Numbered from the stretch's first letter, positions 43,327 through 46,865 are shown. The stretch is 64,000 nucleotides of DNA from Sphingobacteriales bacterium (GCA_021299635.1 JAJTFA010000003.1:78079-142078), one strand, 5' to 3'. Numbers and translations: made by a program. Notes: generated by a model not told the origin, from the letters alone.

Positions 43327-43356
43327 TTCAATGGATAGAATAGATGGTCTCGTAGT
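43327..43356 (+). repeat. Permuted partial duplicate of the 5' third of the downstream tRNA-Arg
   Basis: TTCAATGGATAGAATAGATG followed by GTCTCGTAGT equals tRNA positions ~11-30 followed by positions ~2-11, which is about 1.3 tandem copies of the tRNA 5' 30-mer. It sits 80 nt upstream of the intact tRNA. The spacer holds nested perfect hairpins (cgaaaaat[..gcaaac gat gtttgc..]atttttcg and aaaatc aaa gatttt). Confidence 0.6.
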
Positions 43357-43435
43357 CCCGAAAAATAGCAAACGATGTTTGCGTAATTTTTCGAGGATGC
43401 TCGCGACAGAGCAAAATCAAAGATTTTGACTGGAT

Positions 43436-43510
43436 GGTCTCGTAGTTCAATGGATAGAATAGATGTTTCCTAAACATTTGATACAGGTTCGATTCCTGTC
43501 GAGACTACCA
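43436..43510 (+). tRNA. tRNA-Arg (anticodon CCT), with an encoded 3' CCA
   Basis: GGTCTCGTAGTTCAATGGATAGAATAGATGTTTCCTAAACATTTGATACAGGTTCGATTCCTGTCGAGACTACCA folds as a cloverleaf. It has U8, A14, G18G19, anticodon stem GATGT/ACATT, anticodon loop TTCCTAA (anticodon CCT), and T-arm ACAGG TTCGATT CCTGT. Position 1-72 appears to be G.U. Confidence 0.8.
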
Positions 43511-43775
43511 ATCCTTTTCTTCTCATATCAACTTATCTAATACCCTATTTTGGGCAATTTGTGGAATCTTCTTTGTCTGCTGTGAAGCCATTTCGTATCA
43601 ATGGATTTTAATCGGGCAAAAAGCATATAAAGTTGTTTTATGAGTTCTTCTCTCTTGCTGTAATCATCAGTATATTAGATAAATGCATAAATATTATCCA
43701 TTTTATTGGTTTGGGCGCAAGGAAAAAGTCTAAATCTCGTCTAACTTCTTTACTTGCAATGCGTCACACCAACCC

Positions 43776-44462
43776 ATGCGTATTCTAATACTTTTTCTGC
43801 TTTTAGGCCATACCCTCTTTGCTCAACTTAATGAGCAGTGCACCATAAACGTTCACATTCGTTTTGGCCAATCTGATATGCAAGTTGGTGACACATGTTA
43901 CCCAATTTTTCAAACCGACAGCCTGAGGCTGGAAGCGGTGAAGTTTTATATGGCAGGTATTGAGTTATGGAAAGATAATAAAAGGGTTTGGGCAGAGCCA
44001 AACAGTTTTCATTTAATTGATGCAACAGAACCGGCATCCATGAAAATTAAACTGCCAATATCCAACGCCATACAGTATAACCAATTAAAGTTTAGCATAG
44101 GCATAGATAGTGCTACCAACACAGCAGGTGCCATGGGTGGTGATTTAGATCCAACCAAAGGAATGTACTGGACATGGCAAAGTGGGTATATTAATGTTAA
44201 AATGGAGGGAACGTATAGCCGAAGCACTGCACGAAACAAAAAGTTTCAATTTCATATTGGTGGGTATAAGTATCCATATGCTGCAGTGCAGCCTATTTCG
44301 TTGCCTGTACAATCTAACTCAGGTATACATCTGGCATTGAATTTAGAACAATTATTGGAACGCTTGTTTACAGATAATCAGTTTGAAATAATGTCTCCGT
44401 GTCAGGAAGCGGTGAGGGTGTCTCAACAGATGGCAAGCCTTTTTACACTTATGAATCCATGA
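43776..44462 (+). CDS. Secreted MbnP-like (putative copper-binding) protein, partner of the downstream di-haem peroxidase
   Basis: 228 aa with a signal peptide (MRILILFLLLGHTLFAQ). Its size, position immediately upstream of a MauG/MbnH-like di-haem CCP with a 4-nt overlap, and conserved Trp-rich stretch (GMYWTWQSGY) fit my recollection of MbnP-family proteins. This is not verified by search. Confidence 0.5.
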   Translation: MRILILFLLLGHTLFAQLNEQCTINVHIRFGQSDMQVGDTCYPIFQTDSLRLEAVKFYMAGIELWKDNKRVWAEPNSFHLIDATEPASMKIKLPISNAIQYNQLKFSIGIDSATNTAGAMGGDLDPTKGMYWTWQSGYINVKMEGTYSRSTARNKKFQFHIGGYKYPYAAVQPISLPVQSNSGIHLALNLEQLLERLFTDNQFEIMSPCQEAVRVSQQMASLFTLMNP

Positions 44463-45493
44463 AAAAGCAGATACTATTTTTACTACTCATCACGGTGCTT
44501 ATCTGCGGATTTACGGCTGAGCAAATTCAACTATTTTCTATCCCTAAAGGTTGGCCTAAGCCTGCCTATAACATGCGCAAAAATCCATTACAAGCGGCTA
44601 ACATAGCGTTGGGCCGTGTATTGTTTTATGATCCGATTTTATCGGCCAATCAAACCATATCCTGTGCAAGTTGTCATTCGGTATATACAGCCTTTACGCA
44701 TGTTGATCATTCATTGAGTCATGGAATAAACGATAGGGTAGGAAAGCGCAATGCTCCTGCGCTGATGAATCTTGCCTGGCACTCTTCGTTTATGTGGGAT
44801 GGGGCCATCAATCATCTCGATATGCAAGCCCTGGCTCCTATTACACATCCGGATGAAATGGGTGAGAACCTTGAAAGTGTCGTATCAAAATTGAAGGCAT
44901 CAGCTTTGTATCCTTCACTTTATTATAAAGCTTATGGCGACAGCCAGATAACAGGTCAGCGCACATTGCAGGCAATTTCTCAGTTTCTGCTCACCTTGGT
45001 TAGCGCGCAATCAAAATATGATAGCGTGATGCGAAAAGAGGCTATATTTACCCAACAAGAGCAAAATGGTTATCGGTTATTTAAACAGCATTGTTCATCA
45101 TGCCATACCGAACCTCTATTTACCAACTTACAATATGAAAATAATGGTTTACCTGTTGATACCTCTCTAAATGATTACGGGCGAATGCACGTTACTTTAA
45201 ATCCATCAGATTCCTTACGATTTAAGGTTCCAACCTTACGTAATATTGAATTCTCATATCCTTATATGCACGATGGGCGTTTTCAGAAGTTAGCACAGGT
45301 ACTCAATCATTATACAAATGGAATACGTCAAAGCACTACAAGCGTGGCTATACTTAAGCTTCCAATTGTACTGAACTCAAATGAGAAAGTTGATGTGATT
45401 GCTTTTTTACTTACGCTAACCGATAAGCATTTTTTATTCAACCCACAATATACTTACCCCAAACAGCTTTTATCAATCAACCAAACCCCTTAA
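44459..45493 (+). CDS. Di-haem cytochrome c peroxidase (MauG/MbnH/CCP family)
   Basis: Two CxxCH haem-binding motifs are present (CASCH and CSSCH), with a signal peptide (MKKQILFLLLITVLICGF) and CCP-like length. I take the start at the ATG at 44459, not the upstream extension in the track. Confidence 0.85.
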   Translation: MKKQILFLLLITVLICGFTAEQIQLFSIPKGWPKPAYNMRKNPLQAANIALGRVLFYDPILSANQTISCASCHSVYTAFTHVDHSLSHGINDRVGKRNAPALMNLAWHSSFMWDGAINHLDMQALAPITHPDEMGENLESVVSKLKASALYPSLYYKAYGDSQITGQRTLQAISQFLLTLVSAQSKYDSVMRKEAIFTQQEQNGYRLFKQHCSSCHTEPLFTNLQYENNGLPVDTSLNDYGRMHVTLNPSDSLRFKVPTLRNIEFSYPYMHDGRFQKLAQVLNHYTNGIRQSTTSVAILKLPIVLNSNEKVDVIAFLLTLTDKHFLFNPQYTYPKQLLSINQTP

Positions 45494-45503
45494 ACCCATT
45501 TAA

Positions 45504-46865
45504 ATGAAACAACTAATTCTAATGGCAACACTTGCATGCAATATATTTGCATTGCACGCACAAACCAATCCGGTTATTACAAAATGGCTCCTTAATACAA
45601 CAGGTATTAAAGGTAGGCACTATATTAAAAACAACTCAACGCCCATTCAGGATGCAGACTCTGCAAATGTGAAGGGAGTACTTTATTCTGCAACGGCAGC
45701 ATACATTAGAGCAAATGGTATTCCGGCATACATTACAGGGCCTTTTATGGATGGCAATCCTAATTTAGCCGGTAGTCAAAACGCCATTTTTAAATTCCCC
45801 CTGAACCCCGTGCAAAACACCGGAACCTTGTCACCAACAACCGGAGGGAATATTGGATTATTTATTAATGGAGTAGCATTATTTGACTACCGTGATGGGG
45901 CTTCGTGGCAAAATGCTACAAGTACCCTCAAGGGTGGACCATACGGAGGCACAGGTGATGGTGTTTGGAACAGAGATGCAGTTGTAGGAGAGCGCCTGGG
46001 ATTTGATTGTTCCAAAGGTCATCCTGCAGGCACTAACTATCATCACCACCAAAATCCAAGTGCGTTTAAATTAGATATTAAAGTAATATCAACCATTTGT
46101 AATCTTTATGATGCAGATGGTTTGTATGTAATTGATAGCTCTAAACATTCTCCGCTGATTGGATTTGCCTATGACGGTTTCCCTATTTACGGAGCATATG
46201 CTTATAAGAATGCAGACGGAACAGGAGGAATTGTGCGCATGAAATCTAGTTATAAGCTGCGGAGCATTACAAAGCGGAATACAAATGTAGACGGTGTAGC
46301 TGTAACTGCAGGCCCTGATGTAAGTGTAACGTATCCGTTGGGTTATTTCAGAGAAGATTATCAATACAACCCAACCTCAGCTGCTACACCCGATTATCTG
46401 GATGAACACAATGGCCGGTTTTGCGTAACACCGGAATATCCAAATGGTATCTATTGTTATTTTGCAACGGTTGATGAAAACTGGAATTCAGCTTATCCTT
46501 ATGCAGTAGGTCCAACTTTTTATGGGGTAAAGAGCGCATCTAAAGTTACCTCCATTACTGAGTCCGTTACGAAGTATGAACCGTCAACCACCAGCTTAAT
46601 GCAGGTACAATTAGAGTCTTCTTTCATCTCTGTTTTTCCTAACCCTACCAGTGATCTTATAGCGGTTCAGTTAAATGATATCAATCAAACGGACCTGCTA
46701 GTAAAGCTATATGATGCCACAGGAAAATTATTGGATCAAACTACTTTATTTCAGGGCAGCACCATTGCATACTTTGATGTGAGTAAAGCATATGCCGGAA
46801 ATTATATTATCCATATAACAGATGGAACCAATCTTGTAACCCGAAAAATTATCTTGACTAAATAA
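45504..46865 (+). CDS. YHYH-family (PF14240-like) protein carrying a T9SS C-terminal sorting domain
   Basis: 453 aa with a signal peptide. GHPAGTNYHHHQNP is the YHYH-type His cluster and DYLDEHNGRFCVTPEYPNGIYCYFAT is the second conserved YHYH-family block. The C-terminus ISVFPNPTSDLIAVQLNDINQTDLLVKLYDATGKLL...GNYIIHITDGTNLVTRKIILTK is a T9SS CTD. Confidence 0.65.
   Translation: MKQLILMATLACNIFALHAQTNPVITKWLLNTTGIKGRHYIKNNSTPIQDADSANVKGVLYSATAAYIRANGIPAYITGPFMDGNPNLAGSQNAIFKFPLNPVQNTGTLSPTTGGNIGLFINGVALFDYRDGASWQNATSTLKGGPYGGTGDGVWNRDAVVGERLGFDCSKGHPAGTNYHHHQNPSAFKLDIKVISTICNLYDADGLYVIDSSKHSPLIGFAYDGFPIYGAYAYKNADGTGGIVRMKSSYKLRSITKRNTNVDGVAVTAGPDVSVTYPLGYFREDYQYNPTSAATPDYLDEHNGRFCVTPEYPNGIYCYFATVDENWNSAYPYAVGPTFYGVKSASKVTSITESVTKYEPSTTSLMQVQLESSFISVFPNPTSDLIAVQLNDINQTDLLVKLYDATGKLLDQTTLFQGSTIAYFDVSKAYAGNYIIHITDGTNLVTRKIILTK

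Follow-up and report, generated by a model that had tools for sequence, protein, structure and literature searches.

In Methylosinus trichosporium OB3b, the WxW-motif copper protein MbnP is encoded directly 5' of MbnH, a MauG-like di-haem enzyme. MbnP binds copper through His, Met, kynurenine (Kyn) and water; its Kyn174 arises from a Trp of the conserved WxW motif, forms in an MbnH-dependent manner and is required for copper binding (PMC11951088). MauG, a Tyr-ligated di-haem enzyme, oxidises Trp residues of its partner, pre-methylamine dehydrogenase, in the periplasm (PMC11951088), and in Methylococcus and Methylomicrobium a periplasmic di-haem peroxidase (MCA2590/CorB) is paired with a surface or secreted copper protein, MopE/CorA (PMC3621798, PMC11951088). 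Here we describe three open reading frames (ORFs) in a 64,000-nucleotide stretch of DNA from a Sphingobacteriales bacterium (GCA_021299635.1 JAJTFA010000003.1:78079-142078; hereafter the window, with positions counted from its first letter). ORF1 and ORF2 encode relatives of MbnP and MbnH, and ORF3 encodes a YHYH-family protein with a sorting domain for the type IX secretion system (T9SS). We tentatively read this trio as an operon for an envelope metal-handling module, most probably for copper, that is conserved across Bacteroidota.

The layout of the trio agrees with a first-pass annotation of this DNA, which had called three co-directional genes with 4-nt and 10-nt junctions:
43776-44462, + strand: ORF1, MbnP-family protein, 228 aa (PF20243 and fold match)
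44459-45493, + strand: ORF2, MauG/MbnH-type di-haem enzyme, 344 aa counted from its ATG (PF03150)
45504-46865, + strand: ORF3, YHYH protein, 453 aa (PF14240 and T9SS sorting domain)
The ORF1 stop and the ORF2 start share the four nucleotides ATGA (44459-44462), and 10 nt lie between the ORF2 stop (45493) and the ORF3 ATG (45504). Signal-peptide-like sequences were recognised by eye at the N-termini of all three proteins.

ORF1 matches the Pfam MbnP model PF20243 with E=7.6e-43 (147 bits against a cut-off of 27) over profile positions 2-183 of 189, and its close homologues carry the NCBI name "MbnP family protein". An AlphaFold2 model of ORF1, built with 33 homologues, reached a predicted local distance difference test (pLDDT) score of 86.7. 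When this model was compared with the PDB using Foldseek, the only significant matches were the six chains of 7L6G, the Methylosinus MbnP structure (E 5e-7 to 3e-6, probability 1.00, template modelling (TM) score 0.55-0.63), with the next match at E=0.4. Together these data bear out the proposal that ORF1 is MbnP-like. ORF1 starts with a signal peptide (aa 1-17, MRILILFLLLGHTLFAQ) and lacks a T9SS tail, which predicts a periplasmic location. Its likely functional residues are:
44160-44180, + strand: GMYWTWQ (aa 129-135), holding the invariant residues M130 and W132 and W134 of the WxW
44253-44255, + strand: H160, the sole invariant His of this MbnP subfamily
Each of these residues is invariant in both alignments of ORF1 homologues, of 37 and of 33 sequences. 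We therefore regard W132 and W134 as candidate Trp residues for kynurenine formation, M130 as a candidate Met ligand and H160 as a candidate copper ligand that may correspond to the His ligand of 7L6G. The invariance of Met, Trp and His is consistent with a Met/His/Kyn copper site like that of the OB3b protein, whose fold ORF1 shares, although ORF1 is only 12-14% identical to it and about 60 residues shorter.

ORF2 matches the CCP_MauG family PF03150 with E=1.1e-52 and is predicted, from its signal peptide, to be periplasmic. Consistent with the earlier description of a two-CxxCH MbnH/MauG-like protein, it carries two haem motifs and a conserved Tyr:
44663-44677, + strand: first haem motif CASCH (aa 69-73), with C69, C72 and H73 invariant in 51 homologues
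45092-45106, + strand: second haem motif CSSCH (aa 212-216), with C212, C215 and H216 invariant in the same 51
45311-45313, + strand: Y285, likewise invariant in the 51 homologues
Residues 18-334 align end to end with the OB3b MbnH structure 6E1C (E=3e-38), and Y285, in the sequence NHYTNG, aligns with the Tyr of IDIYSEGG in 6E1C. The Nitrosomonas peroxidase 1IQC has no residues aligned at Y285, its ...TMGRIQL... segment following directly after that gap. Y285 is thus a candidate Tyr axial ligand of a six-coordinate haem, a feature of the MauG type and not of the peroxidase type; we take the equivalent Tyr to be the haem ligand in MauG-type enzymes. ORF2 differs from MauG itself in scoring 176.8 bits on the MauG equivalog model against a cut-off of 443.85, and in the absence of mau genes. 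An alternative assignment of ORF2 as a lipoprotein, through the sequence LICG, was ruled out, as C16 is conserved in just 8% of homologues.

ORF3 has a signal peptide (aa 1-20, MKQLILMATLACNIFALHAQ) and matches the YHYH family PF14240 with E=4.5e-57 (193.6 bits against a gathering cut-off of 25) over aa 96-328. Conservation across the family was scored in 108 diverse representatives, and the features that stand out are:
46020-46058, + strand: H173 and NYHHHQNP (aa 178-185), in which Y179, H180 and H182 are the YHxH signature
46146-46148, + strand: H215, the fourth universal His of the YHYH domain, 99% conserved
46401-46424, + strand: DEHNGRFC (aa 300-307), with D300, N303, G304 and R305 conserved family-wide
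46632-46853, + strand: type A T9SS C-terminal sorting domain (aa 377-450; PF18962, E=2.5e-12; TIGR04183, 48.6 bits against a cut-off of 23)
The family match, the YHxH signature and the two sorting-domain matches above cut-off uphold the earlier naming of ORF3 as a T9SS-sorted YHYH protein. The further suggestion of two His-rich metal sites holds in part. Both motifs are present, and H173, H180 and H182 are 100% conserved with Y179 at 90% or above, but H302 of DEHNGRF occurs in only 35% of the representatives and is invariant only inside the Bacteroidota subfamily. Within NYHHHQNP, H181 is conserved in just 46%.

The residues conserved at 90% or above are H173, H180, H182, H215, D168, D224, D300, E163, E284, D285, W155, R245, R258 and R305, and the invariant aromatic residues are W155, Y179, Y229, Y317 and Y319. 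The Bacteroidota subfamily is additionally invariant at C169, C199, C307, H39, W135, H302 and W327. This pattern agrees with the metal site of three His and one Asp predicted for YHYH proteins by Iyer et al. in 2021 (PMC7824862). The family as a whole is large, with 2259 clusters at 50% identity (E up to 0.001), and its members occur in bacteria, phages and eukaryotes, many as giant multidomain proteins. Some YHYH proteins of the loci described below have an extra domain of about 90-190 aa inserted ahead of the T9SS tail (for example P0014, P0018 and P0081).

To place the trio in context we surveyed it from both ends. On the YHYH side, one genome was taken per GTDB species, giving at least 495 loci, of which the best 80 were kept; their labels cover Chitinophagales, Saprospiraceae, Sphingobacteriales, Flavobacteriales and others. 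An MbnH homologue was found in 60 of these 80 loci, on the same strand as YHYH every time. It lies immediately 5' of YHYH in 48 loci, is separated from it by a single multicopper oxidase gene in five, and follows the order YHYH-MbnP-MbnH in four. MbnP was present wherever there was space for it 5' of MbnH (53/53). Median identity to the window proteins is 66% for YHYH, 62% for MbnH and 40% for MbnP, making YHYH the most conserved of the three. Starting from MbnP, we obtained 80 contigs in a metagenome scan and counted the 36 with at least 2.6 kb downstream; all 36 carry MbnH and 33 carry YHYH. Close relatives of ORF3 number in the thousands in Bacteroidota metagenomes, the top 120 clusters being 71-98% identical.

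The genes outside the module vary from locus to locus across the 80 loci. Given that the trio recurs in 60/80 and 33/36 independently sampled loci with differing outer flanks, the adjacency is far above chance, and its spread over several orders speaks against an arrangement peculiar to this strain. Several genomes have two YHYH genes with sorting domains, either in tandem or flanking MbnP-MbnH (L001, L005, L025, L044, L050 and L081 11763-14758). Six records of metagenome-assembled genomes (MAGs; L037, L045, L010, L021, L027 and L080) carry this clearly Bacteroidota-type T9SS locus under the names Bifidobacterium sp., Asaia bogorensis or Chitinophaga pinensis, which suggests mislabelling or mis-binning in the public assemblies.

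We clustered the ORFs neighbouring the 80 loci and scanned the cluster representatives. In 25/80 loci MbnP is directly preceded by genes for an extracytoplasmic function (ECF) sigma factor, a protein of 86 aa and a membrane-anchored protein of 154 aa; a Chondrinema homologue of the last matches LTXXQ weakly. The multicopper oxidase that separates MbnH from YHYH in the five loci noted above is CueO-like and T9SS-tailed (NF008205, 377 bits), and in further loci it is found elsewhere in or beside the cluster, which strengthens the copper link proposed for the trio. Two kinds of AhpC/TSA-Redoxin (TlpA/ResA-like) proteins recur near the trio, as do PhoD/metallophosphoesterase-like proteins with T9SS tails, and a sulfatase-family gene with a T9SS tail adjoins YHYH in 22 of the loci (for example L010 1069-2451 and L013 10297-11946). 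The representative of these Bacteroidota sulfatase-like proteins has CSSTR in place of the usual sulfatase CxPxR. In loci without MbnPH, YHYH mostly stands with genes for the multicopper oxidase, the sulfatase-like protein, the redoxin and the phosphoesterase, and in some loci, such as L005, L044 and L150, both gene sets are merged.

A second YHYH subfamily, equally well conserved, is found in Deinococcota and Pseudomonadota. We examined seven distinct contexts of it: a Deinococcus plasmid, Hydrogenophaga and five from MAG or metagenome assemblies. A general partnership of YHYH with MbnPH is not borne out: neither MbnP nor MbnH is present in any of the seven. Instead, YHYH is directly followed in 7/7 by a protein with a predicted mature N-terminal His (signature ...A/HLMVAQ[RKH]GT[LI]N, the stroke preceding that His), and in 6/7 a HupE_UreJ_2 permease is fused to this domain, which is about 170 aa long. 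Partner genes of this kind include:
L162, 8821-9915: N-terminal-His partner gene
L164, 4808-5935: N-terminal-His partner gene
L167, 4854-5951: N-terminal-His partner gene
L170, 5987-7102: N-terminal-His partner gene
L172, 6294-7442: N-terminal-His partner gene
L168, 5978-6586: N-terminal-His partner gene, with the domain unfused (202 aa)
In L168 a di-haem DHOR gene (PF06537) adjoins YHYH, the only such gene in the seven contexts; the other neighbours are an OmpR-type two-component system in 5/7, a sulfatase in two (next to YHYH, in the proteobacterial-type contexts L167 2399-3679 and L172 2569-4197) and a redoxin in one. A Cytophagales plasmid has an intermediate order of sigma factor, small protein, LTXXQ-like protein, YHYH, N-terminal-His membrane-anchored protein and TlpA.

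An N-terminal-His domain joined to HupE/UreJ-2 is how the anglerases, reported in 2025, are built. They use the N-terminal His to bind Cu2+ (Kd ~70 nM) and Ni2+ and have been proposed to pass metal on to the permease (PMC12537917). The anglerase paper contains no mention of YHYH (PMC12537917). A comparison of the N-terminal-His domains with the crystallised Ang-1 did not demonstrate homology. Like Ang-1/Ang-2 with HupE/UreJ-2, these partners have an extracytoplasmic Cu2+/Ni2+-binding architecture, and in gene order they stand beside YHYH where Bacteroidota have MbnPH; unlike in those phyla, no anglerase system is found in the window or the Bacteroidota loci. As judged from gene neighbourhoods, YHYH thus appears to accompany an envelope signalling system and a Cu/Ni-binding-type extracytoplasmic protein across phyla, with only the identity of the partner changing. 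This linkage is an independent hint that ties YHYH to Cu/Ni capture.

These data allow us to propose a mechanism for the trio. All three products would leave the cytoplasm by the Sec pathway. In the periplasm, ORF2 would use peroxide-derived oxidising power to turn a Trp of the ORF1 WxW motif into kynurenine, which would complete a Met/His/Kyn copper site as in the Methylosinus MbnP/MbnH pair. ORF3, with a putative site of four invariant His and acidic residues, would fold in the periplasm while awaiting T9SS export and could exchange metal there with MbnP. Loading prior to export seems the likeliest course; less likely, ORF3 would catch metal at the cell surface and pass it inward. Where present, the T9SS multicopper oxidase may also exchange copper with MbnP before export. 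The YHYH protein would finally reach the cell surface and act there, either displayed or released. An adjacent ECF sigma/anti-sigma pair would control the module in many relatives, where it also takes in the T9SS-exported CueO-like multicopper oxidase and TlpA-like thiol-disulfide oxidoreductases. Our confidence in the direction of metal transfer is lower than that in a copper-handling module as such.

The first-pass annotation had seen a compartment mismatch in this arrangement, with two periplasmic proteins and a third routed to the surface. T9SS cargo is exported by Sec, stays for a time in the periplasm and is only then translocated across the outer membrane. Because the cargo waits there before translocation, all three proteins would meet in the periplasm, and the mismatch falls away. 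Surface or secreted MopE/CorA with its di-haem peroxidase provides a precedent (PMC3621798), and by analogy it is the closest one for the pairing of a periplasmic enzyme with a surface protein. The trio is distinct from it, however: MopE/CorA differ in fold, are not YHYH proteins and are not exported by T9SS, and the trio adds a separate periplasmic MbnP.

Several observations weigh against a copper-handling module of this kind. ORF1 scores 38.7 bits on the NCBIfam model TIGR04052 (MbnP_like_WxW), where the equivalog cut-off is 140, and the best NCBIfam model for ORF2, TIGR04039 (MbnH family), gives 205.8 bits against a cut-off of 362.85. Since both fall under these strict cut-offs, we call them divergent family members by sequence. 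Neither a single-sequence search of the PDB with ORF1 nor a search with its 37-member profile reached 7L6G, which weakens the case for equating the candidate ORF1 ligands with those of 7L6G. For YHYH, sequence and profile searches of the PDB gave T9SS-tail matches only, with no solved relative, and a structure model from a 23-sequence alignment was unusable (pLDDT 41). Its putative metal site is drawn from conservation, and the conserved Arg, Asp and Glu residues would fit an enzyme equally well. We found no residues that separate MbnPH-linked from unlinked YHYH copies, and MbnPH is not nearby in 20 of the 80 loci. The sulfatase-like and PhoD-like neighbours point to nutrient scavenging over copper. 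In the window itself, homologues of the ECF set, the multicopper oxidase, the redoxins and the sulfatase-like proteins were not found.

Several of these points are shared with the explanation that survives best beside a copper module, which we nevertheless consider unlikely: that YHYH is a secreted metal-dependent hydrolase, for example a Zn enzyme acting on an extracellular polymer or ester, that it has no particular tie to copper, and that it is only co-regulated with MbnPH, all of these genes being part of a single ECF-controlled regulon of secreted proteins for envelope stress or nutrient scavenging. Iyer et al. predicted a jumbo-phage tail-associated Zn hydrolase from the same domain and the same His and Asp residues, and described fusions to phage tail and lectin domains (PMC7824862), which also counts against a role in copper handling; the protein described here is, by contrast, a T9SS cargo in a copper-type neighbourhood. 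The many giant multidomain proteins of the family would suit such an enzyme, as would the Arg, Asp and Glu residues conserved alongside His, the T9SS-tailed sulfatase-like and phosphoesterase-like neighbours and the sulfatases of the proteobacterial contexts. Co-regulation fails, however, to explain why MbnPH and YHYH stay in tight, short-spacer, co-directional adjacency across orders while other members of the regulon vary, and it leaves unexplained the invariable Cu/Ni-capture-type N-terminal-His neighbour in other phyla.

The same parts could instead serve defence against copper stress, with MbnP as a periplasmic and YHYH as a surface copper sponge, MbnH as a peroxidase or maturase, a CueO-like cuprous oxidase and thiol-repair redoxins, all induced when copper overload is sensed through the ECF system. 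Known copper-stress sets contain CueO, Scs and TlpA-type proteins, and the CueO-like oxidase, the TlpA/ResA-like redoxins and the ECF sigma/anti-sigma genes of our clusters resemble them. We think this quite unlikely, given that methanotroph mbnPH and mopE/corA are expressed under copper limitation and not excess (PMC3621798), and that in other phyla the partner role falls to HupE/UreJ-2, a permease of importer type (PMC12537917). Defence nonetheless overlaps with acquisition or delivery, as only the physiological direction differs.

A further proposal, which we judge improbable, is that YHYH is itself the substrate of a MauG-type enzyme. In the periplasm, before T9SS export, MbnH would then convert a Trp or Tyr residue of YHYH into a protein-derived cofactor, either kynurenine or a quinone, with MbnP as a second substrate or accessory. 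It is MbnH, not MbnP, that abuts YHYH in the 48 loci noted above, and the protein offers invariant W155, Y179, Y229, Y317 and Y319, to which Bacteroidota add W135, W327, H39 and H302. Parallels exist in MauG with pre-methylamine dehydrogenase and in CorB/MopE-type peroxidases, the latter coupling a periplasmic di-haem enzyme to the surface or secreted kynurenine copper protein MopE/CorA (PMC3621798, PMC11951088), and one proteobacterial YHYH has the di-haem DHOR (PF06537) beside it. Against this, MbnP, a known type of substrate with an invariant WxW, accompanies MbnH in 53/53 loci. In other phyla, in phages and in eukaryotes, most YHYH proteins lack a MauG-like neighbour yet share these core residues, and no residue tells the MbnPH-linked copies from the unlinked ones. 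Chance or strain-specific juxtaposition, finally, is negligible in our estimate: we found no evidence for it beyond the window's lack of accessory genes seen elsewhere, and it is refuted by the 60/80 and 33/36 loci, with unrelated outer flanks, in several Bacteroidota orders.

Returning to the trio as a metal-handling module, the MbnP/MbnH pair is of a known kind, and by fold, motifs and synteny the window pair is a divergent member of it. As in OB3b, the WxW partner gene stands directly 5' of the gene for the MauG-like enzyme, and ORF2 aligns with the OB3b enzyme over its full length, including the Tyr motif. Unlike in OB3b, methanobactin genes and a TonB-dependent transporter are absent nearby: mbnA/B/C or MbnT were not among the window flanks and were not recurrent in 160 related loci. 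In their stead are a third gene, for a T9SS-exported YHYH protein, and ECF-type regulation. What is new is thus this conserved third gene, the ECF-type context, the T9SS multicopper oxidase and the cross-phylum swap of partners. A full-text search found no literature linking YHYH with MbnP or MbnH, within a coverage that did not extend to the two papers likeliest to describe such gene neighbourhoods.

A wider model can be drawn from these comparisons, although we hold it to be doubtful. YHYH would be a general extracytoplasmic handler of copper, or of Cu/Ni, with a partner that is swapped by phylum: a kynurenine-based MbnP/MbnH pair in Bacteroidota and the N-terminal-His anglerase-HupE/UreJ-2 system in Deinococcota and Pseudomonadota. 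If so, the MbnPH pair of Bacteroidota would metallate T9SS cargo, or mature it by oxidation, while YHYH and the co-clustered T9SS-exported multicopper oxidase are still in the periplasm, and would be the first system of this kind to be described.

We also considered how the window trio is delimited and controlled. Its 5' flank has metG followed by tRNA-Arg(CCT) at 43436-43510, and its 3' flank a convergent gene of 666 aa; with these neighbours on either side the trio is a self-contained unit. The G+C content is level throughout the region. An Rfam scan 5' of ORF1 found the tRNA only and no regulatory RNA, and no sigma-70-like promoter was found in the spacer 5' of ORF1. This spacer contains one possible promoter element:
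43738-43744, + strand: CGTCTAA heptamer, 31 nt 5' of the ORF1 ATG, a possible ECF-type -10 element
The sequence CGTCTA(A) also occurs 25-45 nt 5' of MbnP in L002, L003, L007 and L017, which have no ECF-set gene upstream, and just 5' of the ECF sigma gene in L074 and L079. With a background of ~1e-4 per nt, ~5 occurrences were observed against ~0.3 expected, both small counts. As an auto-regulated promoter of the ECF sigma gene it was found at only 2/24 sigma genes, whose start calls are unreliable. The heptamer may, on this weak evidence, be the -10 element of an ECF-type promoter, and since CGTCTA(A) resembles the CGTC -10 of such promoters, the window operon might answer to an unlinked ECF sigma factor.

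A permuted copy of the 5' part of tRNA-Arg(CCT) lies about 100 nt upstream of the tRNA. It comprises an exact 20-nt repeat (43327-43346 = 43446-43465) and a 19-nt repeat of 89% identity (43338-43356 and 43428-43446). This partial repeat may have been left behind by a rearrangement, or by integration at the tRNA.

MbnP/MbnH pairs are widespread beyond methanobactin operons, and YHYH proteins form a large family with no assigned function. The trio offers both families a testable context and gives a lead for YHYH toward the handling of a metal, probably copper, which is reinforced by the independent link of YHYH to another Cu/Ni-capture system. It also raises the general question, so far little considered, of how T9SS-exported metalloenzymes acquire their metal during their stay in the periplasm. 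Bacteroidota of freshwater and soil carry the module in abundance, so that it may matter for copper cycling there.

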